The position numbers and the translations under genes were made by a program. Shown here piece by piece: positions 3,039 to 21,093 of a DNA stretch of 64,000 nucleotides. The notes below the pieces were generated by a model, which worked only from the letters and a program-made list of their open reading frames with translations, made no database searches and was not told the DNA's origin. The stretch's first letter is position 1. Every line of letters begins with the position of its first letter. Origin of the DNA: a virus (Duplodnaviria > Caudoviricetes); IMG/VR virus record IMGVR_UViG_3300037424_000485, positions 64,001 to 128,000 of that record; one strand, written 5' to 3'.

Positions 3039-3941
3039 ATGTCAAGAAAAATAACTACCTATGACCAGCTAGATAGTTTTCATATTACCAGAAATGGCAA
3101 TATATCAACAAAAGATGGTATAATTATAGAATTTGAAGATAATTGTAGTGTATGTGGTGAGTTATATTATAGGAGACAAAAAAGAGATAGTCTAATATGC
3201 TCTTTAGATTGTAAAAAGAATATAGAAGATAAAGAAATGATAAATTTATTATCTATTGATGGTTATAAAGTATTGGGCCTATATTCTAAAAACAAGAGAA
3301 GATATGCAAAAATGATATGTCCTTTTGGACATATCAATAACATTATGGCTTTTAATTTTAAAAATGGTCATAGATGTAAAAAATGTGCATATACTGGTAA
3401 TAAAAATAGCCATTGGAAAGGCGGTGTGGTTACTCGTAACATTCCATTATATAATACATATTATAAACAGTTGGATACATATGAAGAAGTTAGAAGATCA
3501 TCAATAGATGAAAACATATTAGAAGTAAGATGTACATATTGTAATAAATGGTATATACCAAAAAGAACATCTGTTAGAAGTAGGATACAATCTATTATTG
3601 GACAGACTACAGGAGAGAATAGATTTTATTGTTCTAATGGATGTAAAGGTAGCTGTGAAATATTTAATCAACAAACACAAATAAAAGGTCATAAACCCAA
3701 TAAATACACAAGAGAAGTTCAACCGCAACTAAGAAAGATAGTATTAGAGCGTGATAATTGGAAATGTCAGAAGTGTAGTGATATCAATATCCAATTACAC
3801 TGCCATCATATTGACCCTGTTGTAAACAACCCTATTGAAAGTGCAGATATTGATAACTGTATTACATTATGTAAAAAATGTCATAAGAAGGTTCACAAAC
3901 AAGTAGGTTGCGGGTATAATGATTTAAAATGTGGGCGATAG
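3039..3941 (+). CDS. HNH homing endonuclease (window family, subtype A)
   Basis: EVRCTYCNKWYIP...REVQPQLRKIVLERDNWKCQKC...HCHHID...DNCITLCKKCHKKVH. Confidence 0.85.
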   Translation: MSRKITTYDQLDSFHITRNGNISTKDGIIIEFEDNCSVCGELYYRRQKRDSLICSLDCKKNIEDKEMINLLSIDGYKVLGLYSKNKRRYAKMICPFGHINNIMAFNFKNGHRCKKCAYTGNKNSHWKGGVVTRNIPLYNTYYKQLDTYEEVRRSSIDENILEVRCTYCNKWYIPKRTSVRSRIQSIIGQTTGENRFYCSNGCKGSCEIFNQQTQIKGHKPNKYTREVQPQLRKIVLERDNWKCQKCSDINIQLHCHHIDPVVNNPIESADIDNCITLCKKCHKKVHKQVGCGYNDLKCGR

Positions 3942-3971
3942 TGTTAAATTTTAAGACAAAAGGATATAAAT

Positions 3972-4481
3972 ATGTATTTAGAACTAAGTGCAAGACAAAC
4001 AGGCAAGACCACAAGACTCATAGAACATGTTATAGAACGGCTTCAAAATGATGCACGTAAATATGTTGCTATCATAGGTATGGGCTATAGTCACACTGAT
4101 GCTATAAAGAAAAGATTCTCTCATGCCCTTCCATGGCATGAGTTTAAACATATTAGATTCTCTTCATCATATATGGGTCTGGTGCCAGAGTTATATGATA
4201 CTGTTTATTTTGATGAATTTTGTTCTCATATAAGTATTCCTATCATACCTAATGGTTATTACTCATCAACCCCCACTAGTTTAGATAATTCATTTCTTAG
4301 AGAGTTGATAAATTACAACAACGGTCATTATGAGACATACAAAAATCATAAGATCGAAGAAGATTGGATTAATAATATTGGGGATGTAAATATGGATATT
4401 GGATTTACTCTAAAAACATTCTATGATAATTTTCCCCCACCTAACAGAAGCGTAGTACCAGAAGAATTATTCCAAATGTAA
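3972..4481 (+). CDS. P-loop protein (terminase ATPase-like N-terminus) with PEELF tail
   Basis: ARQTGKTT Walker A-like and VYFDEF Walker B-like motifs; ends VVPEELFQM. Confidence 0.55.
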   Translation: MYLELSARQTGKTTRLIEHVIERLQNDARKYVAIIGMGYSHTDAIKKRFSHALPWHEFKHIRFSSSYMGLVPELYDTVYFDEFCSHISIPIIPNGYYSSTPTSLDNSFLRELINYNNGHYETYKNHKIEEDWINNIGDVNMDIGFTLKTFYDNFPPPNRSVVPEELFQM

Positions 4482-4490
4482 AGGAGAAGC

Positions 4491-5432
4491 ATGGATTCTG
4501 TATTAATTGTATGTAATGGTGCAAAACACTATGGCTTATCATCCACCATCGATCATGAAAATAGCCTTTTTGCCGATGGCGAGGTTAATGTTCGTATAAA
4601 AGACTCAGTAAGAAATAAAAAAATTACCATACTACAGGGGTTTGAGTTACCTAACACCCACTTGATGGAACTTATCATAACAATAGATGCTGCTAAAAGA
4701 AGTGGTGCTCAAGAAGTAAATGTCATAATACCCATGTTCCCTTATGCAAGACAGGATCGAGTATCGAATAGTGGATGTCCTATATCAGGCCGTGTAGTAT
4801 GTGATATGCTCAATGCTGTCAATCCTGATAGGGTTGTATGCTTTGACCTTCATGCAGATCAGATACAGGGATTTATGGGTAATAAATGTCAATTTGACCA
4901 TATACCACTCACATCATTCTTATCATACCATCTAAAACGACACATACCAAATATAGAAACTTTCTCATTTTGTGCTCCTGATGCGGGTGCGATAAAAAGG
5001 ACATCAAAGCTGAAAGATATGTGTGGGGCCGTTGATATGTGTTTTATGAATAAAATTAGAACAAGAGCAAATGTTGTTGATTCCATACAGATCATTGGTG
5101 ATGTTGAGGGTAAGAATATAATACTTGTTGATGACATAATAGATACTGGAAATACAATTTTATCAGCAATAAAAGTGTTGAGAGATAATGGTGCTAATAA
5201 TGTAAAGACTGTGTTCAGTCATGGTATATTCTCATCACCTGCATATTCTAATCTAAATGGTGAGGATATATATGTTACAGATACAATGTGTATTAAAGAT
5301 AAAGACAAAAATGAACAATTCAAACCAAAAAATCTAAATATACTACCTATAAAGAATTTTCTATTAGAACTTATATCATGTATTAATGAAAAAAAACAAC
5401 TAGGAACTTTATTTAAAAATTGGTCAGAATAA
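4491..5432 (+). CDS. prs: ribose-phosphate pyrophosphokinase
   Basis: FADGEVNVRI, PMFPYARQDR, DLHADQIQGF, APDAGA, LVDDIIDTGNT motifs. Confidence 0.95.
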   Translation: MDSVLIVCNGAKHYGLSSTIDHENSLFADGEVNVRIKDSVRNKKITILQGFELPNTHLMELIITIDAAKRSGAQEVNVIIPMFPYARQDRVSNSGCPISGRVVCDMLNAVNPDRVVCFDLHADQIQGFMGNKCQFDHIPLTSFLSYHLKRHIPNIETFSFCAPDAGAIKRTSKLKDMCGAVDMCFMNKIRTRANVVDSIQIIGDVEGKNIILVDDIIDTGNTILSAIKVLRDNGANNVKTVFSHGIFSSPAYSNLNGEDIYVTDTMCIKDKDKNEQFKPKNLNILPIKNFLLELISCINEKKQLGTLFKNWSE

Positions 5433-5560
5433 TGAAAAATTTCTTATAAATAAGTATAGAGAGACTATAAGGTTGCTCCTTTAGATGATTGTTAATCATA
5501 CTAGGATAAGAACCTTTAATCTTATCCTATCTCTTTCAAATACCTATCAAGAGGTATATA

Positions 5561-6666
5561 ATGACGGTAATAACAACAGAAGAATTTATTAAAAGATCCA
5601 AAGAAGTGCATGGCGATAGATATGATTATAGTGTATCTACATATAATGGGTTTAGAAAACATGTGAATATTGTATGTTCTATACATGGTATATTTAAACA
5701 AACCCCTGTTAAACATTACAGTGGTAATGGTTGTCATAAATGTGGACAAATCTCTTCTAATAAAAAAACACCAAAACAACAGAAGATTTCATAAAACAAG
5801 CATCCGTTAAACACAATAATAAATATAACTACATGTTGGTCGATTATATTAAATCATACAATAATATAAAAATAATATGCCCTGTTCATGGTATATTTGA
5901 ACAAACACCTAGAAGACATCTTAACGGTGGGTGCTTGAAATGTGGTATAGATATAAGAACAAAAACAACGGATATATTTATAAAAGAATCTATTATTATA
6001 CATGGTGATAGGTATGATTACTCATTAGTTGAATATATAACAGCTCATATTAAAGTTAAAATTATATGTTTGGTTCATGGTGTATTTGAACAGACACCCA
6101 AACTACATCTTAGATCGTCTGGGTGTCCTATGTGTTTGGGTATATTTATTGAAAGATATAATATTAACAATATACCTATATATCAAACCTATGTTCAACA
6201 ATTAGAATTATATGAAGATATTAGAAGATCATCTTATGATAAAAATATCCTTGAGATAAGATGCACTTATTGCAACAAATGGTATATCCCAAAATTAAGT
6301 CATGTCCAGACACGATTAAAAGCTATATATGGAAAAATAAAAGGAGAAAGCAGATTTTATTGTTCCGATGGATGTAAATCTAACTGTGATTTGTATGCAC
6401 AGAGTAAATATCCCAAAGGACATAAAATAAATAAACACTCAAGAGAAGTACAGCCACAACTAAGAAAATTAGTATTAGAAAGAGATAATTGGACATGCCA
6501 AAAATGTAGCAGTGATAAAGATTTACACTGTCATCACTACGAAGGCATAGAAATAAATCCTGTTGAGAGTGCTGATATAGACAATTGTATTACTCTTTGT
6601 AAAAAATGTCACAATGCTGTTCATAAACAAGATGATTGTAACATGAGAAGGAATAAATGTAAATAA
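5561..6666 (+). pseudogene. frameshifted HNH endonuclease with repeated Cys/His N-terminal modules (subtype A)
   Basis: ORFs 5561-5794 and 5833-6666 share the module CxxHGxFxQTPxxH...GC; adding one A to the A7 run near 5762-5768 joins them. Confidence 0.75.
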
Positions 6667-6669
6667 TGA

Positions 6670-6789
6670 CAACAATACAAAACAAAAAGTATAGTTGTGC
6701 TTCCACTGACGAATTTTATTAGTGATATTATATTATGTATAGATAACCAGAGACAATTTGGTAAAATGTTCAAGAATTGGTCTGAGTAG
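6670..6789 (+). pseudogene. displaced homologous copy of the prs 3' end
   Basis: Translates QQYKTKSIVVLPLTNFISDIILCIDNQRQFGKMFKNWSE*, ungapped 18/39 identical to the Prs C-terminus; no start codon for the segment. Confidence 0.9.
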
Positions 6790-6792
6790 AGG

Positions 6793-6821
6793 TTTACATA
6801 TCTACTACATACATGTATAGT
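6793..6821 (+). promoter_or_regulatory. sigma70-like promoter
   Basis: TTTACA-17 nt-TATAGT upstream of rnh. Confidence 0.55.
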
Positions 6822-6828
6822 GTAACAT

Positions 6829-7716
6829 ATGAAAACAACAATATATATAGATGCAAACAACCTAGCAATCAGATGTGCCTTTAGTCAGGATGTATATCAA
6901 GTTGGTTTAAATGATGATTATTATATAGATTGGGAGCATTGGAGCTATCTGGTATTCTCTAATATCTATAAAGCTCTCAATCATGTTACCAATTGTAATG
7001 AGATAATCTTGGCTGTAGATGCAAAGGTGTCATGGCGTAAAGATGTATGGTCTAGATATAAAGAGTCAAGGTCTAACAAAAGAGCCACAGGAAAACCTTT
7101 TGATTGGCCCTTATTCTTCGAAAAATATGCAGAACTACAAGAAGAATTTAAAAAACACTTTCCATTTAAAATATTAGCTATAGATAAGTGTGAAGCTGAT
7201 GATATTATTGGAGTTCTTGTTTTAAACAACCCCGAAAAATCACAAATTATATCTTCAGATAAAGATTTCATACAATTATATATTCCAGATAGGGTAAGTA
7301 TATACAGTCCTATGACAAGGACGAATCTGTTACATCCAAATACAGAAATGTTTCTTGTAGAGCAGAGTCTTATAGGACAGAGCAAAGATGACATATTCAA
7401 TATAATCACACCATTAGACCATCCTATAGGTAAAAGAAAACCAGGATATGGGGAAAAAGCTTTAGATAAAACCATAGCTTATGGATGGAAGAGATGGCTG
7501 AAGGATAAAAAACTAGAAGAGAGGTATGAATTTAACCGCAATCTTATGGATTTCAGGCGTATTCCAGAGCCTATTAAAGAAAATATTATCACGGCGCGTG
7601 AGAAATACGAAACACCGCATCCAGAAAATATTTACAAATTTTTTAAAGAGCATCATTGGCCTGAGTATCTTGAAAATTTAACAAATGTTGAAAATAGATT
7701 ATATGAGCTGTATTGA
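6829..7716 (+). CDS. rnh: T4 RNase H-like 5'-3' exonuclease/flap endonuclease
   Basis: IYIDANNL, LAVDAKVSWRK...YKESR, CEADDIIG, IISSDKDFIQL, LIGQSKDDI motifs. Confidence 0.85.
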   Translation: MKTTIYIDANNLAIRCAFSQDVYQVGLNDDYYIDWEHWSYLVFSNIYKALNHVTNCNEIILAVDAKVSWRKDVWSRYKESRSNKRATGKPFDWPLFFEKYAELQEEFKKHFPFKILAIDKCEADDIIGVLVLNNPEKSQIISSDKDFIQLYIPDRVSIYSPMTRTNLLHPNTEMFLVEQSLIGQSKDDIFNIITPLDHPIGKRKPGYGEKALDKTIAYGWKRWLKDKKLEERYEFNRNLMDFRRIPEPIKENIITAREKYETPHPENIYKFFKEHHWPEYLENLTNVENRLYELY

Positions 7717-8612
7717 TGAAAATAACCTGGGATAATATAGATAAATTTTATATTACACCATCTGGAAATTTTAGATATAATAATGTAACATACGAATTAA
7801 AGAATGAGTGTGAATATTGTGGCGATCCATATTTTACAGCAAAAAGATTAGGTAATAATAAATGCTGTTCTAGATCTTGTATATCAAAAATAAATAGCAT
7901 GGGTGAAAAAAATACATTTTATGGTAAAACACATTCAAAAGAATCTTTAGAAAAAATGTCAGGTATTAATCATCACATGTATGGGAAGAAACACACAGAA
8001 GAAACACTAGAAAAGATATCAAAGAGTAGTATAGAATGGCATAGCAATAATAAACACCCTATGCTTGGAAGATATGGTTTAAAAAATCCTAATTGGAAGA
8101 ACGGATATCATAGTAATAATATACCATCGTATAATGTATATTCACATCAGTTAGAGCCATTTGAGAAAACAAGAAGATGTGCTGATGATGAAAATATATT
8201 AGAGGTAAGATGTACATATTGTAATAAATGGTATATTCCTAATAGAGTAAGTGTTAGTAATAGGATACTATCTATCACAGGATATCATACCGGGGAGAAT
8301 AGATTTTATTGTTCTGATGAATGTAAAGGAAGTTGTGATATTTTTAGACAAAGAATAAATCCAAAAGGATATAAGACTAATAATTATAAAAGAGAAGTAC
8401 AGGCACAACTAAGAAAATTAGTTTTAGAAAGAGACAACTGGACATGTCAGAAGTGTAATAATATAGAAAATTTACACTGTCATCACTTTGAGGGTATCGA
8501 AATAAACCCAATTGAAAGTGCTGATATAGACAATTGTATTACATTATGTAAAAAGTGTCATAAAGAAGTACATAAACAAGATGGCTGTAATATGAAAAAG
8601 AAAAGATGTTAA
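7713..8612 (+). CDS. HNH homing endonuclease with NUMOD3 motifs (subtype A)
   Basis: YGKTHSKES / YGKKHTEET motifs plus the family C-terminal HNH module. Confidence 0.85.
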   Translation: MMKITWDNIDKFYITPSGNFRYNNVTYELKNECEYCGDPYFTAKRLGNNKCCSRSCISKINSMGEKNTFYGKTHSKESLEKMSGINHHMYGKKHTEETLEKISKSSIEWHSNNKHPMLGRYGLKNPNWKNGYHSNNIPSYNVYSHQLEPFEKTRRCADDENILEVRCTYCNKWYIPNRVSVSNRILSITGYHTGENRFYCSDECKGSCDIFRQRINPKGYKTNNYKREVQAQLRKLVLERDNWTCQKCNNIENLHCHHFEGIEINPIESADIDNCITLCKKCHKEVHKQDGCNMKKKRC

Positions 8613-10011: not shown

Positions 10012-12411
10012 TTGATAGAGACAGCGATAAGTAAAAATATTTGGAATTTGAAATACCGATATAACGGAGAGGAAGAGATAGATTTTTATAATAGACCAGT
10101 AAGAGGGCTATTTGACGGTCTTACTACCAAAGAAGAAATACAACCTTATTTTAGTATTTTAGATATGAATACTAGAGAAGATATGTATAGTGATTTAAGC
10201 AACGTATTTATAGGACATTATGGTATGCTGGCTGGTAGACCTATGTATTCTTTAGGTACAGGAAGAACAAAACAAACTTTATCAAATTGCTTTGTTTTAA
10301 ATTTTAAAAGTGATTCTATGGAAGCTATCATGGACACTGCTAAAAATTCGGCTATGACCATGAAAGCTGGCGGTGGTGTTGGATATAGTTTTAGCATTTT
10401 AAGACCTAAAAAATATATTATTAACTCTAGCGGTGCTAGATCAACTGGTGTACTATCATTTATGAATATATTCAACACCACCTGTGCTACAATTGAGGCT
10501 GGTGGTAATCGTAGGGGTGCTCAAATAGCCGTTCTGGGTGTGTGGCATCCAGATGTCATGGAGTTTATCACATGTAAGCGTAAAGGTGATGGTCTACCAG
10601 ATGAGTATAAACCCTATAAGAATTTCAATTTAAGCGTTTATATTTCTGATTTATTTATGAATGCTGTTAGAGATGACACCATGTGGGATTTGAAATTTCC
10701 AGACACCACACATCCAAAGTATGATGATGAGTGGGATGGGAATATTAACTTATGGGAAGATAAAGGATATACTGTAATTGTTCATGATACTATAAAGGCT
10801 AGAGATTTATGGGATAAAATCATGAAGTCTAGTTATGATTTCGCGGAGCCTGGAATTCTATTTGAAGATACTATCAATAAAAACAATACATTGTGGATGG
10901 AAGAATATATACTCGCATGTAATCCATGTTCAGAACAGGCCCTACCAGCAGATGGTTCATGTAATTTAGGATCTCTTAACCTTACACAATATGTACAAAA
11001 TATATTTACTAACAACGCTCATATTGATTTTGATTTATTAAAGCATATCACTACAAAAATGATTATAATGCTTGATAGGATGCTTGATGTTAATTATTAT
11101 CCATTAGAAAGACAAGCAATTAGTGCTGCATCAAAAAGACAGATAGGATTGGGTGTTACTGGTCTTGGAGATATGCTTGCAATGATGACTATAAAATATT
11201 CATCACCAGCGGGTAGAGAACTAGTTGCTGATATTATGGTTGCAATTAGAGATGCAGCATATAGAGCTAGTATAGAACTAGCAAGGCAATTAGGGCCTTT
11301 TCCATTATGGGACACATTCACACCAGAAAAAAAGAAACAATTTATAGAGGGTGGTTTTATAAAGACTCTTCCAGAAGATATAAAACAAGATATTCTTAAA
11401 TATGGAATACGCAACAGCCGACTTCTATCAATCGCCCCTACTGGAACTATATCTCTCATTATGAATAATGTTTCGAGCGGTATAGAGCCTATCTTTTTGT
11501 TAGAGTATGATAGAAAAGTAAAAACCACCAGTGAAGAAACAATCTCAGAGTCTATTGAGACATATTCATGGTTAAAATATAAGCAGTTTACAGAGCTTAA
11601 CAATCCAGAAAAACCGGACTTCTTTGAAACAACAGATGATTTAAATGTAGATGATCATTTGAATATGCTTGCTGTTATTCAGAGGCATATATGTACATCA
11701 GCATCAAAAACCATTAATATTCCAGTAGATTATGAGTATGATAGATATAAAGAAGTATTTACAAAAGCACATTCTCTTGGTATAAAGGGATGTACAGCAT
11801 ATAGACCCAATGATATTATCGGATCTGTACTGTCAAAAAAAGGTGGAAATGGGCCGTGCTCAGAAAGGCCAGAAGAAATTGCATTTATGTGTGCTCCAAA
11901 AAGACCATTAGATCTTGATTGTGAGATACACCACTGCAATATCAAAGGAAAGCCTTGGTTGGTTATAGTAGGTATGTATAAAGAAATACCATATGAAATC
12001 TTTGCTGGTGAAGCAGATGATTTATATATTCCAAAAACGTGTAAAGAAGGGGTTATCTCTAAGAGGAAAAAGGGGTCATATTCCCTTAGTGTAAAAATTA
12101 GAAATAGTGAAATTGAGTATAAAGACATTGCCCATACATTGATGACCACTGAGCAGAGGGCTATGACTAGACTGGTTAGCCTATCTCTAAGACATGGTGT
12201 TCCTCATGAGTTTGTTGTTAAGCAGCTTAGTAAGTCTAGCGGTGATATCACAGACTTCTGTGCAGTTATTACCAGAGTCCTGAAGAGCTATATTAAGCAA
12301 TACAAATATGATAAAGATGTAAAATGTCCTGAGTGTGAGGATGGTATGCTAATTAGAAAAGAAGGATGTATGTCTTGTGATAAACAGTGTGGTTACTCGA
12401 AATGCGGTTAG
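10012..12411 (+). CDS. nrdJ: class II (B12-dependent) ribonucleotide reductase
   Basis: LSNCFV, GGGVG, NPCSEQ, CNLGSLNL, SIAPTGTIS, GCTAYR and a C-terminal Zn ribbon CPEC...C...C; no intein or intron visible. Confidence 0.9.
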   Translation: MIETAISKNIWNLKYRYNGEEEIDFYNRPVRGLFDGLTTKEEIQPYFSILDMNTREDMYSDLSNVFIGHYGMLAGRPMYSLGTGRTKQTLSNCFVLNFKSDSMEAIMDTAKNSAMTMKAGGGVGYSFSILRPKKYIINSSGARSTGVLSFMNIFNTTCATIEAGGNRRGAQIAVLGVWHPDVMEFITCKRKGDGLPDEYKPYKNFNLSVYISDLFMNAVRDDTMWDLKFPDTTHPKYDDEWDGNINLWEDKGYTVIVHDTIKARDLWDKIMKSSYDFAEPGILFEDTINKNNTLWMEEYILACNPCSEQALPADGSCNLGSLNLTQYVQNIFTNNAHIDFDLLKHITTKMIIMLDRMLDVNYYPLERQAISAASKRQIGLGVTGLGDMLAMMTIKYSSPAGRELVADIMVAIRDAAYRASIELARQLGPFPLWDTFTPEKKKQFIEGGFIKTLPEDIKQDILKYGIRNSRLLSIAPTGTISLIMNNVSSGIEPIFLLEYDRKVKTTSEETISESIETYSWLKYKQFTELNNPEKPDFFETTDDLNVDDHLNMLAVIQRHICTSASKTINIPVDYEYDRYKEVFTKAHSLGIKGCTAYRPNDIIGSVLSKKGGNGPCSERPEEIAFMCAPKRPLDLDCEIHHCNIKGKPWLVIVGMYKEIPYEIFAGEADDLYIPKTCKEGVISKRKKGSYSLSVKIRNSEIEYKDIAHTLMTTEQRAMTRLVSLSLRHGVPHEFVVKQLSKSSGDITDFCAVITRVLKSYIKQYKYDKDVKCPECEDGMLIRKEGCMSCDKQCGYSKCG

Positions 12412-13874: not shown

Positions 13875-14138
13875 ATGAAATTACAAATTGGTCATGAATA
13901 TTTGCTTGAACCAAAGGAGTGGGAAGGACATAAATACCATATGAAAGTAGTAGAATTTAGTTCTACTGGTAGAGTTTCATTTCTTTGGAGAGAAATAACA
14001 TGCGATACAAAATATGTAGATTATGTAGATAATGTAGATAATGTGCAGTATTACTCATCAACACTAAATAAATGGATTGAGGAAGGTTCAATGTTGCCTT
14101 TATCAATATTACCAGAAGAATTATTTAAAATGGAATAA
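13875..14138 (+). CDS. hypothetical protein with PEELF tail
   Basis: GGGAG RBS; ends ILPEELFKME. Confidence 0.6.
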   Translation: MKLQIGHEYLLEPKEWEGHKYHMKVVEFSSTGRVSFLWREITCDTKYVDYVDNVDNVQYYSSTLNKWIEEGSMLPLSILPEELFKME

Positions 14139-14231
14139 ATGATTGATTTTAATAAAGTAATTGACTTATGTAACCAGTATGGTGAGAATGTATCCATTAA
14201 ATCTGGCGGTAGCGGTATTATCATGCGTTAA
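14139..14231 (+). pseudogene. probable displaced primase 5' end (30 codons)
   Basis: MIDFNKVIDLCNQYGENVSIKSGGSGIIMR* ends where the HNH gene ends; same length class as the pre-CxxC segment of the primase at 15080. Confidence 0.5.
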
Positions 14232-17485: not shown

Positions 17486-17680
17486 GTGCCAATTTTTGAA
17501 TTTAAATGTATGTTATGTGACGATATATCAGAAGAAATAACAAGCGATAGAGAGAAGGTAGATTCTGTATGTCCAAAGTGTGGTGCTCTGAGTAATAAAA
17601 TAATGAGCGTGGTGGGATGGGATATAAAAGGTGGTGGCGTTTATCGTACTTGCCCCCCTGCAACCATACCCAAGAAATAA
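17486..17680 (+). CDS. FmdB-like Zn-ribbon protein
   Basis: MPIFEFKCMLC...CPKCG. Confidence 0.75.
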   Translation: MPIFEFKCMLCDDISEEITSDREKVDSVCPKCGALSNKIMSVVGWDIKGGGVYRTCPPATIPKK

Positions 17681-18629
17681 TATAATGTCTAAATTAACAA
17701 CAGACGATTTTGTAAATAGATCTAAATTTTGTCATGATAATTATTATAATTATCTATTAACAGAATATAAGTCTATATTTTTAAAAGTAAAAATTACATG
17801 CCCTATACATGGTATATTTGAACAAACACCTCATGATCATCTTAAAGGGCATGGATGTAAGAAATGTGGCATTACTAGAGGTATACAGAAAAGAATATTA
17901 ACAATAAGTGAGTTTATACAAAAAGCAGAAAATATTCATGATAAATATGACTATTCACATGTTGACTATTATAATTCAAGAACCAAAGTAAAAATTACAT
18001 GCCCTATACATGGTATATTTGAACAAACACCTCATGAGCATCTTAATGGACATGGATGTCCTGAGTGTGGTGTATTAAAAAATACCTATGGACAGAGATT
18101 AACAACATTAGATTTCATAGAAAAAGCTAAATTTATTCATGGTGACAAATACAACTACTCCTTGGTTAATTATATATCCACTCATATAAAAGTAAAAATT
18201 ATATGTCCTATCCATAGTGTATTTGAACAACAACCCAATGGGCATTTAAATGGATATGGATGTCGTGAATGTTATAAATCATTGTCTATATCAAAACCAG
18301 AAAAAGAAGTATTTGAGTACGTTAAAACACTAACTATTGAAGATGTTATAAATAATGATAGAACACAAATTATCAACCCCAAAACAGGACATTATTTAGA
18401 ATTAGATATATGGATACCTTCTTTGAATAAAGCTATAGAATTTAATGGTAGATATTGGCACTCATTAGAAGGGGTTGATTATAGAGATCATCAAAAAAAT
18501 ATTCAATGTAAGGATAAAGGAATAGAGCTATTAGTAATTGAAGAGCAAGACTGGCTTAATGATAAATATTTATGCGAGGCTGTTATAAAGTTATTTATAA
18601 CAGCCTCGCATAACCAGCGTGGCCAGTGA
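17631..18629 (+). CDS. homing-type PD-(D/E)xK endonuclease with three repeated Cys/His modules
   Basis: KVKITCPIHGIFEQTPHxHLxGHGC repeats; C-terminal SKPEKEV...LELDIWIP...AIEFNGRYWH. Confidence 0.8.
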   Translation: MVAFIVLAPLQPYPRNNIMSKLTTDDFVNRSKFCHDNYYNYLLTEYKSIFLKVKITCPIHGIFEQTPHDHLKGHGCKKCGITRGIQKRILTISEFIQKAENIHDKYDYSHVDYYNSRTKVKITCPIHGIFEQTPHEHLNGHGCPECGVLKNTYGQRLTTLDFIEKAKFIHGDKYNYSLVNYISTHIKVKIICPIHSVFEQQPNGHLNGYGCRECYKSLSISKPEKEVFEYVKTLTIEDVINNDRTQIINPKTGHYLELDIWIPSLNKAIEFNGRYWHSLEGVDYRDHQKNIQCKDKGIELLVIEEQDWLNDKYLCEAVIKLFITASHNQRGQ

Positions 18630-19481: not shown

Positions 19482-20342
19482 ATGATATCAGATGTAAAGA
19501 AGTGTTCTAAGTGTAAAGAAATTAAAAACATTTCTGAATTTTATAAATGTATTTCTAATAAAGATGGTTATAGATATCAATGTATAATATGTACCAAACA
19601 GAGTTATATTTACAATAAAGATAGTATCAGTAAAAGAGCTAAAGAATACTATAAAAATAATAAAGATATTATTATTGAAAAATCTAAGAAATATTATAAA
19701 AATAATAAAATTTCTGTTAGTAAAACAGCTAAGACACGTAGGAAAAATAATAGTGTTATTATAAAAAAACAAAAGAGGCTGTATTATAGTACCAATAAAG
19801 ATATTATTAATAAAAAATCAAAAATATATAGGACATCATTTGCATCATATGAAACATATGCACATCAGCTAACAGTAGAAGAAGAACCTAGATTAGCCGA
19901 TGATGGTATGTCGCTTGAAGCAAGATGTAAATATTGTGGTAAGTATTTTAAGCCTACTAATACACAAGTACAAGGAAGAACTAAAGCTTTGAATGTAGAA
20001 AATAGAGGAGAGTTACACCTTTACTGTTCTGATGATTGTAGATCTAATTGTGATATTTATGGTCAACATATAAATCCTAAAGGATATAAAATAAATAAAT
20101 ACTCAAGAGAAGTACAACCAGCTTTAAGAAAGCTTGTATTAGAAAGAGACAATTGGATATGTCAGAAGTGTGACTCATCAAAAGAACTACACTGTCATCA
20201 CTTTGAAGGCATAGAAATCAACCCAATTGAAAGTGCTGATATTGATAATTGTGTTACATTATGTAAAAAGTGTCATAAAGAAGTTCATAAACAAGATTAT
20301 TGTAACATGAAAAGGGAAAAATGCATTAGTGTGATAAAATAG
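19482..20342 (+). CDS. HNH homing endonuclease (subtype B)
   Basis: KKCSKCKEIK N-terminus, YYKNNK repeats, family HNH module. Confidence 0.85.
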   Translation: MISDVKKCSKCKEIKNISEFYKCISNKDGYRYQCIICTKQSYIYNKDSISKRAKEYYKNNKDIIIEKSKKYYKNNKISVSKTAKTRRKNNSVIIKKQKRLYYSTNKDIINKKSKIYRTSFASYETYAHQLTVEEEPRLADDGMSLEARCKYCGKYFKPTNTQVQGRTKALNVENRGELHLYCSDDCRSNCDIYGQHINPKGYKINKYSREVQPALRKLVLERDNWICQKCDSSKELHCHHFEGIEINPIESADIDNCVTLCKKCHKEVHKQDYCNMKREKCISVIK

Positions 20343-20838: not shown

Positions 20839-21093
20839 GTGCCATTATATAGCATGAAATGTAATAACTGCGATAAAGAAGAAGATGATGTGTTGAAAAA
20901 ATATGAAGAAGCCTATAATTGCCCTGAATGTGGTAGTCCCATGGTTCATATCACAAATTGCACTCATTATAAATTGGTCTATAATAATCAGCGGGATTGT
21001 TGTGACTGGACAGGACAAAGCTCTCAATATTGGAACGACTATAAAGCGGCAAAGGCAAGAGGGGAGAATGTAAAGCCGCAAGGTTCTGATTGA
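20839..21093 (+). CDS. FmdB-like Zn-ribbon protein
   Basis: MPLYSMKCNNC...CPECG. Confidence 0.7.
   Translation: MPLYSMKCNNCDKEEDDVLKKYEEAYNCPECGSPMVHITNCTHYKLVYNNQRDCCDWTGQSSQYWNDYKAAKARGENVKPQGSD

Follow-up and report, generated by a model that had tools for sequence, protein, structure and literature searches.

A displaced prs gene end beside a free-standing HNH endonuclease gene in an uncultured T4-like phage

Two prs ends and the HNH cassette between them

The locus described here lies in a 64,000-nt window of a 204-kb genome record from an uncultured T4-like phage; all coordinates are those of the window, and all features are on the plus strand. A full-length, mosaic ribose-phosphate pyrophosphokinase gene (prs, 4491–5432; Pfam Pribosyltran_N, Pribosyltran and Pribosyl_synth) encodes a protein of 313 aa, equal in length to those of relatives that share 67–72% identity with it. 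Its last 39 codons and stop (5313–5432), here called tail A, correspond to Prs residues 275–313 (EQFKPKNLNILPIKNFLLELISCINEKKQLGTLFKNWSE). A second, start-less prs end of 39 codons (tail B, 6670–6789) is found 1.36 kb away; its codons (6670–6786) read QQYKTKSIVVLPLTNFISDIILCIDNQRQFGKMFKNWSE and are followed by a TAG stop (6787–6789). The original prediction that the HNH stop is followed by 39 start-less residues colinear with the end of Prs, 18 of them identical and with a shared FKNWSE-stop terminus, was confirmed by translation, alignment and tblastn. The two tails align without a gap and share 79 of 120 bases, stop codons included, so that 34% of their bases differ. Tail B was recovered when Prs was searched by tblastn against the whole 204-kb genome (E 6e-9), and a local flank scan matched the two tails at E 4e-13; their likeness is beyond chance. 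Tail B has no in-frame ATG, and its sole in-frame start, a GTG at 6697, is not preceded by a Shine-Dalgarno-like sequence. A target-site duplication was rejected on two counts, the excessive length of 117 nt and the 34% base difference between the copies.

The HNH cassette proper begins past the prs stop, at its own T4 late-promoter consensus, TATAAATA (5445–5452), which starts 12 nt beyond tail A and opens the cassette leader. The motif recurs before other HNH copies, lying 87–116 nt upstream of the start codon in five of the eight copies in the window. The leader contains a terminator-like hairpin (5502–5529), and an RBS, AAGAGG, lies 3′ of it (5549–5554). The HNH gene (5561–6666) is read in two frames. 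The first (5561–5794) encodes DUF723-type zinc-finger repeat 1 and matches PHROG endonuclease families, while the second (5764–6666, open from 5764 with its first ATG at 5833) encodes DUF723 repeats 2–3, a zinc module and the HNH nuclease. The frames break at an A7 run (5762–5768), which has the same sequence in contigs from two runs; one added base would reunite them, and a frameshift in the nuclease gene is as expected late in the life cycle of a homing endonuclease. The nuclease motif matches Pfam PF01844 at 22.2 bits (cut-off 21.4) as well as several PHROG HNH families, and the three tandem DUF723-type repeats (PF05265, precomputed on homologues) form a separate DNA-binding module. The natural C-terminus of the family, CNMRRNKCK and a stop, is present. 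At the right junction (6664–6669), the HNH stop TAA (6664–6666) and a TGA (6667–6669) are adjoined by tail B without a spacer. Directly 3′ of the tail B stop is the conserved promoter (TTTACA-17-TATAGT, 6793–6821) of rnh, which encodes a T4 RNase H / 5′–3′ exonuclease (6829–7716; Pfam).

Paralogues of the HNH gene break up the assembly graph within it, which could suggest a chimera of two strains. Both junctions are nevertheless bridged. Two separate sediment runs, one of them possibly the source sample, each have a single contig that spans tail A, the spacer and the 5′ part of the HNH gene (3857–6027 and 4612–5901). In the same runs, single contigs also link the 3′ end of the HNH gene to tail B and rnh (6561–8234 and 6561–7931). 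The bridging contigs show zero differences and matching depth, and the layout of prs, HNH gene and tail B is not an assembly artefact. The companion explanation, that an intron or intein links the prs body to tail B, is opposed by the Rfam search, which returned no family at E up to 1 within 4300–7000 and hence no group I or II intron, and by the prs frame itself, which reaches a complete conserved C-terminus and stop ahead of the cassette; the HNH gene in turn has its own promoter, RBS and start. Artefact or splicing is therefore hardly credible as an account of the locus. No HNH-free haplotype of the same phage was found among the contigs of the two runs; since contigs lose rare variants, the presence of the HNH-bearing form alone is not evidence either way.

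The 3′ third of prs and the prs–rnh junction

By three sequence measures, the working prs appears foreign over its final 113 codons. GC3 is 16/113 (0.14) in codons 201–313 vs. 55/200 (0.275) in codons 1–200 (p 0.007). The closest relative of the genome backbone, judged from rnh and the five genes upstream, is the phage L003, and identity to L003 falls from 83% over codons 1–200 to 53% over codons 201–313 (p 0.006), although L003 and a further relative, L007, are still 72% identical in the latter part. In maximum-likelihood trees of four taxa, where the recombinant lineage is inferred from distances, the 5′ part of prs groups the window phage with L003 against L004 and L007 (support 93/92), whereas the 3′ part groups it with L004 against L003 and L007 (97/94). 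The DNA site patterns concur with this conflict (chi-square p 0.0015), with the informative sites switching near position 5054, and AU tests are borderline (p 0.036–0.11). The 3′ third (5091–5432) is thus a putative donor-derived tract, and with about 113 codons rather than 39 it resembles co-converted flanking DNA. The original prediction of a foreign prs end acquired through HNH invasion fits the discordance of tail A and the native position of tail B (see below), but not its proposed extent of ~120 nt, or 39 codons. By composition and tree position, tail A is part of an AT-rich, phylogenetically discordant tract that continues into the HNH cassette: its GC3 of 0.077 falls in the lowest 1.9% of 39-codon windows in genes of the 64-kb window, and that of the HNH gene is 0.18, compared with a typical 0.28 for tail B.

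HNH-free relatives (L003, L028, L004-6, L007 and L030) supply the comparison for the junction. Each has a Prs of 313 aa and a single prs end that abuts rnh, with no HNH gene between; after the prs stop come 0–17 nt, a conserved TTTACA-17-TAnnnT promoter and then rnh. The original prediction would have failed had HNH-free relatives carried both tails; the five examined carry one each. Two of them, L028 and L030, were contributed by the rnh search, which also yielded L029, a relative without prs. IMG/VR, scanned with both Prs and an alignment of it, yielded no further relatives, the metagenome scan returned relatives at ≤41% identity only, and in the cultured-phage collection Prs matched nothing above 35% while the HNH gene gave only short module DNA matches. 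The best external homologue of the HNH protein is 59% identical, and so provides no orthologue or donor context; no donor lineage for the prs 3′ tract or the cassette was found in these searches. In the first 50 codons of rnh, six informative sites unite the window phage with L003 and none supports either alternative grouping. The backbone character of rnh thus begins at its first codon, which puts the end of the foreign tract upstream of the gene.

Tail B occupies the position of a native prs end, immediately before the rnh promoter, while the stop of tail A is followed by the cassette leader. Context and composition together favour tail B as the native end and tail A as the foreign one. A tail–insert–tail layout alone cannot separate two cyclic permutations, and the reverse polarity would have tail A native and an insert of cassette plus tail B placed just past the prs stop. 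This would require a cassette burdened with a functionless gene end, which itself presupposes an earlier gene-end replacement, and an insert whose edge falls precisely in the gap separating the tail B stop from the −35 hexamer. Moreover, the outliers in composition and phylogeny are tail A and the preceding 74 codons, not tail B. The reverse polarity is quite improbable.

The colinearity of two copies 1.36 kb apart could also reflect a tandem duplication of the prs end in situ, unrelated to homing, with divergence following and the HNH cassette arriving later between the copies. However, dN/dS between the tails is about 0.3, as among the tails of the relatives, so both evolved as working gene ends. 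A dead copy at 34% base difference should have decayed, as the polB remnant described below has at only 5–6% divergence, but tail B contains no internal stop or frameshift. Duplication would also leave the foreign character of codons 201–274 unexplained, and none of the five relatives has a second tail. This origin is very improbable.

Comparisons restricted to the 39 codons bear on whether tail B might be foreign as well. L003 shares 23 of 39 residues with tail B and 19 of 39 with tail A, a difference that is not significant; the tails of L003 and L007 share 24. Residues invariant in the family (12/15 in tail A and 11/15 in tail B, by hand count) do not discriminate the native end. At the DNA level, tails A and B are joint-best matches of each other (77/117). 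They pair weakly in the protein tree (69/75), and in the DNA tree they group with L004 (90/93), with tail B placed apart from L003. This DNA grouping may be a composition effect, but it also fits an origin of both tails outside the backbone. One history of this kind starts from a donor that already had the complete composite, made up of the 3′ third of prs (tail A included), the cassette and tail B. Ordinary homologous homing with a crossover on each side would have transferred it, the right-hand one falling after tail B and ahead of the rnh start, and tail B would serve as a downstream homology arm like that of the yeast WHO elements. The joint-best match and the DNA tree, in which both tails fall on the L004 side and off the backbone relative, agree with such a history, as does the recurrence of the layout at polB, and a propagating unit of this kind is the exact prediction of the WHO model (PMC7282813). 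It sits less easily with the GC3 of tail B, which is backbone-like and unlike that of tail A and the HNH gene, and with the best protein match of tail B, which is L003 at about the L003–L007 level. Furthermore, the backbone-type start of rnh would leave about 40 nt for the right crossover. A composite donor is considered unlikely.

A probable gene-end replacement and its precedents

The locus is best read, and probably correctly on present sequence comparisons, as a homing-endonuclease-linked gene-end replacement like those of fungal mORF gene hybrids and yeast WHO elements. A free-standing cassette comprising the late promoter, leader, three DUF723 zinc-finger repeats and HNH nuclease would have entered the prs–rnh junction by repair of a double-strand break from a divergent donor phage, bringing along the 3′ portion of the donor prs. 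The left crossover would fall around codon 200, in the conserved central part of prs, and donor DNA would extend from that point to the end of the cassette, tail A included. On the right, the end of the cassette would have been joined straight to recipient codon 275, so that the last 39 codons of the recipient (tail B) kept their site ahead of the native rnh promoter but were no longer translated, and prs stayed whole without an intron or intein. The enzyme may have cut a sensitive prs allele near codons 273–275, with tail A presumably resistant to it. The right junction may have formed by illegitimate, one-sided repair or, alternatively, because the cut end paired, as in WHO elements, with a fragment that the donor already possessed. 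The displaced end likely marks the HNH cleavage site, predicted at prs codons ~273–275, which makes the nuclease target directly testable. The prs region would then be a natural record of a free-standing homing endonuclease entering a coding sequence, with the gene kept working by a foreign end. The same event would have produced a chimeric enzyme gene and moved coding sequence between phages that differ at about one-third of bases.

Fungal mitochondria provide the precedent cited in the original prediction, and it is a real one. In the mORF gene hybrids of Allomyces macrogynus atp6 and Glomus sp. atp6, atp9, cox2 and nad3 (Beaudet et al., 2013; PMC3630166), the gene body is followed by a foreign C-terminus, an endonuclease ORF and a stranded native C-terminus, as at prs. 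The ends are strongly diverged in both systems (63.5% DNA identity in Glomus atp6, 66% between the phage tails), and the native end retains its native context. The fungal enzymes, however, are of the LAGLIDADG or GIY-YIG type, often fused in frame to the host gene, and reside in organelle genomes, whereas at prs a T4-like phage carries a DUF723-HNH gene that has a late promoter, a leader and an RBS of its own. The fungal native end also clusters clearly with close relatives, while the phage tail-only trees do not place tail B with L003.

The proposed action also resembles that of the WHO elements, which sit at FBA1 in yeasts of the genera Torulaspora and Lachancea (Coughlan et al., 2020; PMC7282813; Osborne et al., 2026, preprint, doi 10.64898/2026.08.13.744650). 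Each integration swaps the 3′ part of the host gene for an allelic variant and pushes the old 3′ fragment downstream of the endonuclease gene, so that the host gene ends up chimeric: its two parts have conflicting phylogenies, and the 3′ part is the more divergent. The WHO proteins are LAGLIDADG enzymes of intein origin with zinc fingers, and they act in meiotic diploids. The elements occur in clusters of up to nine, and allele-specific cleavage has been demonstrated for them; the phage locus has one HNH element and no cluster. As a DUF723-HNH protein rather than an intein-derived WHO/HO-type LAGLIDADG enzyme, the phage nuclease falls outside the WHO family.

In T4-like phages, intronless homing by free-standing Seg and Mob endonucleases is established, as is one-sided illegitimate double-strand-break repair (Edgell et al., 2010; PMC2988022; mobE, PMC2790892), and homology-free junctions were documented experimentally in T4 in 1999 (reviewed in PMC2988022). 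The prs cassette resembles these systems in being a free-standing gene between conserved replication and nucleotide-metabolism genes, in its variable presence among relatives and in the apparent co-conversion of donor DNA in the flanking gene. The classical cases differ in being cleanly intergenic, with no displaced gene fragment, as 16 of the 18 HNH copies of this genome also seem to be. Repeat-bearing homing endonucleases with CapR/DUF723-type zinc-finger arrays (Barth et al., 2023; PMC10448857) share tandem DUF723-type DNA-binding repeats joined to a nuclease module, a location beside essential genes at the boundaries of genetic exchange, and frameshifted copies. That study centres on the T5orf172 nucleases of ICP1, and a term search of its text returned no mention of displaced gene ends. 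A full-text literature search of incomplete coverage likewise found no phage description of the gene-end-replacement layout.

Other HNH copies and the reach of the proposed mechanism

Of the 18 HNH copies of the genome, all covered by a flank-duplication scan, two have displaced gene ends, those at prs and polB. The polB case has the same polarity as that at prs, and its downstream copy has decayed at only 5–6% divergence: its frame is shifted, about 29 bases are deleted and a 106-aa ORF is inserted. The original prediction had counted three probable cases in the window and seen in them a suggestion of the mobility strategy of the HNH family. This generalization goes too far: two copies of 18 are involved, and about seven HNH copies on the related contigs L024–L027 have no displaced ends beside them. 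A bolder and less probable reading is that the DUF723-HNH cassettes of this T4-like phage group are able to travel as WHO-like units, each made up of a resistant replacement end, a nuclease gene and a displaced end serving as downstream homology arm. Homing into essential coding sequence such as prs and polB without an intron or intein would be a third phage homing mode, shuffling gene ends between distant lineages. If the layout were general in phages, it would account for some of the local phylogenetic discordance at gene ends beside nuclease genes. Start-less “orphan” gene ends next to HNH genes would then be footprints rather than noise, a warning to annotators, and gene-end-replacement homing, called rare and “unique” for the yeast WHO elements, would extend to bacterial viruses.

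Two further candidates for displaced ends were rejected. The primase “stub” (14139–14231) has no detectable similarity to the start of primase, and a zinc-ribbon match by the HNH gene at 19482 consists of two complete paralogous small genes.

Organisation of the prs locus

The window is part of a 204-kb IMG/VR viral contig, of which it covers bases 64001–128000, and the gene content identifies the source phage as T4-like. RNase H, family-B polymerase and RecA-like genes and TATAAATA late-type promoters lie within the window, and gp32, clamp-loader, sheath and baseplate genes are found on related contigs. The ribose-phosphate pyrophosphokinase gene prs (4491–5432, plus strand) encodes 313 aa with all three Prs Pfam domains. 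On the same strand follow an TATAAATA promoter (5445–5452, 12 bases past the prs stop), a leader hairpin (5502–5529), the ribosome-binding site AAGAGG (5549–5554) and an HNH gene (5561–6666), whose TAA stop (6664–6666) is followed by TGA. Next come a displaced prs end of 39 codons plus stop (tail B; 6670–6789), which is colinear with the final 39 prs codons (tail A), and the conserved promoter (6793–6821) of the T4-type RNase H gene rnh. The tails share 18/39 residues and 79/120 bases (stop codons counted), and both end in FKNWSE and a stop; the match of tail B to the prs end (E 6e-9 against the whole genome, E 4e-13 locally) is far beyond chance. No in-frame ATG occurs in tail B, and its sole in-frame start, GTG at 6697, lacks a preceding Shine-Dalgarno-like sequence. 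In each of two separate sediment runs, contigs span both junctions with zero differences and matching depth, so that the structure cannot be put down to chimeric assembly. The start-less prs end that the original prediction placed after the HNH stop is thus confirmed. An Rfam search of 4300–7000 returned zero family matches, group I and II introns included.

Close Prs relatives in the protein database form three clusters only (67–72% identity; contigs L003, L004/5/6 and L007). Two further relatives, L028 (a strain variant of L003) and L030, were reached via rnh. HNH-free relatives with both tails would have spoken against the original prediction; all of these contigs lack the HNH gene, have a single prs end and carry rnh directly after prs. 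The conserved promoter (TTTACA-17 nt-TAnnnT) lies 0–17 nt past the prs stop in every relative and is followed by rnh; in the window, it comes after the stop of tail B, not that of tail A.

In L028, rnh directly abuts a metallophosphatase gene, and the HNH gene at 7713–8612 of the window is therefore another insertion. It overlaps the rnh stop and is absent from L028, and no displaced gene end was seen at this locus. L028 also contains a ribonucleotide reductase gene (L028:3126–6482) with a LAGLIDADG intein, encoding 1118 aa vs. 799 aa in the window (10012–12411). With this intein, a nearby locus of the same phage group carries another kind of selfish element.

Provenance of the prs 3′-end

Layout alone leaves the foreign end undecided, because a tail-insert-tail arrangement can be read in either direction. 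GC at third codon positions (GC3) is 0.077 in tail A, among the 1.9% of 39-codon windows with the lowest values across the genes of the window, 0.28 (typical) in tail B and 0.18 in the HNH gene. The composition shift begins well upstream of tail A, with a prs GC3 of 55/200 in codons 1–200 vs. 16/113 in codons 201–313 (p 0.007). L003 is the closest relative for rnh, for five genes upstream of prs and for prs codons 1–200 (83% identity). Across codons 201–313, window-L003 identity drops to 53%, while that between L003 and L007 is still 72% (p 0.006), and in codons 201–273 unique changes are most numerous in the window sequence (11 vs. 3–4). Trees with outgroups recover {win,L003|L004,L007} for Prs residues 1–200 (support 93/92) and {win,L004|L003,L007} for residues 201–313 (97/94), where win is the window sequence. 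DNA site patterns switch near 5054 (chi-square p 0.0015), and AU tests of the 5′/3′ conflict are borderline only (p 0.036–0.11). As we read the tree distances, their ratios suggest that the odd lineage is the window and not a relative. In the first 50 codons of rnh, six informative sites group the window with L003 and none supports either other grouping; rnh is of backbone type from the start of the gene. On these comparisons, the discordant tract would extend from about prs codon 200 through tail A into the cassette of promoter, leader and HNH gene, and would be over by rnh. The proposal of a foreign prs end probably holds, but with a tract of about 113 codons instead of 39.

The tail B protein matches L003 best (23/39 residues), compared with 24/39 between L003 and L007 and 19/39 for tail A. 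Tail-only trees do not settle placement, with tails A and B grouping with L004 at the DNA level, and it is here that the case is weakest. The dN/dS between tails A and B is about 0.3, similar to that among the tails of the relatives, and each therefore evolved in its own lineage as the end of a working gene. The same value speaks strongly against in-situ duplication followed by decay.

Probable homing-linked replacement and its precedents

Replacement of the prs end linked to a homing endonuclease is the likely explanation. From the anatomy of the locus, a sensitive prs allele would have been cut near codons 273–275, and the left end would have invaded a divergent donor within the conserved middle of prs, so that the donor prs 3′ third, spacer and cassette were copied into the recipient. 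On the right, the broken end would then have been joined in the absence of homology; T4 intron homing provides a documented example of such one-sided, illegitimate double-strand-break repair (Parker et al. 1999, reviewed in PMC2988022). A less probable variant, which we consider unlikely, is that the cut end paired with a fragment already present downstream in the donor, as proposed for the yeast WHO element (PMC7282813). prs stays whole under either repair route. A prs gene severed at codon 274 would probably have lost its function, because the Pribosyl_synth domain match extends to Prs residue 309. Under the favoured replacement, the donor end would have arrived with the endonuclease, as originally suggested, but as a co-converted flank and not a fixed part of the element, since the cassette has its own promoter.

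The fungal precedent invoked for gene-end replacement is real: in atp6, atp9, cox2 and nad3 of Glomus sp. and atp6 of Allomyces, an inserted foreign C-terminus is followed by a mobile endonuclease ORF and the native C-terminus, the two atp6 ends sharing 63.5% identity (PMC3630166). Mechanistically, the nearest model is the WHO element: each integration swaps the 3′-end of FBA1, strands earlier 3′ fragments downstream and makes the phylogenies of the 5′ and 3′ parts of FBA1 conflict (PMC7282813). A 2026 preprint places WHO-type elements in a rare third class of homing elements and mentions no phage examples (doi 10.64898/2026.08.13.744650). A full-text literature search found no phage description of a prs-type layout.

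The HNH family and displaced ends elsewhere

The prs-linked nuclease comprises three DUF723-type zinc-finger repeats, a zinc module and an HNH motif. It belongs to a genome-wide family of 18 copies with a near-constant C-terminal half; the N-terminal DNA-binding modules vary among these paralogues of the 204-kb genome (NUMOD3, DUF723 repeats). Eight copies lie in the window (3039, 5561, 7713, 14228 on the minus strand, 19482, 21209, 42323 on the minus strand, and 58164), five of which share the TATAAATA promoter and hairpin leader. All HNH copies end in C(D/N)M(R/K)(R/K)xKC, which places the cassette end at the HNH stop codon. In the prs-linked gene, the reading frame breaks at an A7 run (5762–5768), identically in contigs of both runs. 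By our reading, one added base would connect repeat 1 to repeat 2 through a normal linker, and the frameshift reflects either mutational inactivation or a slippage site. An ORF at 17631–18629 combines three DUF723 repeats with a non-HNH C-terminal domain (Vsr/PD-(D/E)xK-like by eye); the DUF723 array appears common to different nuclease types.

A flank scan of all 18 copies detected displaced ends at prs and polB only. At polB, the HNH gene (58164–58895) lies antisense and stop-to-stop with the polB N-terminal gene (58896–60752, minus strand, 618 aa). Beyond it, a displaced copy of the polB end (57541–57606, 57972–58034 and 58028–58043, in the region 57541–59072) is 94–95% identical to the working end but carries three lesions, namely a frameshift, the loss of about 29 bases and a 106-aa ORF insertion (57604–57924). 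The final codons of this copy extend into the beginning of the next gene (57544). The polarity matches that of prs, in that the live copy is the one continuous with the body of the gene. Displaced ends are lacking at about seven HNH copies on related contigs, and the primase, cited as a further case, is without similarity support. The layout is therefore recurrent, yet not the rule for the family, whose description as having a common mobility strategy was overstated; the majority of copies occupy clean intergenic positions, like those of classical intronless homing.

The polB gene stops just past motif B (KILINSIYG...), and its C-terminal half (motif C) was not seen nearby on the minus strand downstream. 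The window polymerase may be split, as it is in some T4 relatives (gp43A/43B).

Among other small genes, unrelated small or medium ORFs share a similar (I/V)PEELF(Q/K)M(E) end at 4450–4481 and 14100–14138 (…VVPEELFQM and …ILPEELFKME, each before the stop). Two complete paralogous zinc-ribbon genes (CxxC...CPxCG; 17486–17680 and 20839–21093) border a stretch containing two nuclease genes.
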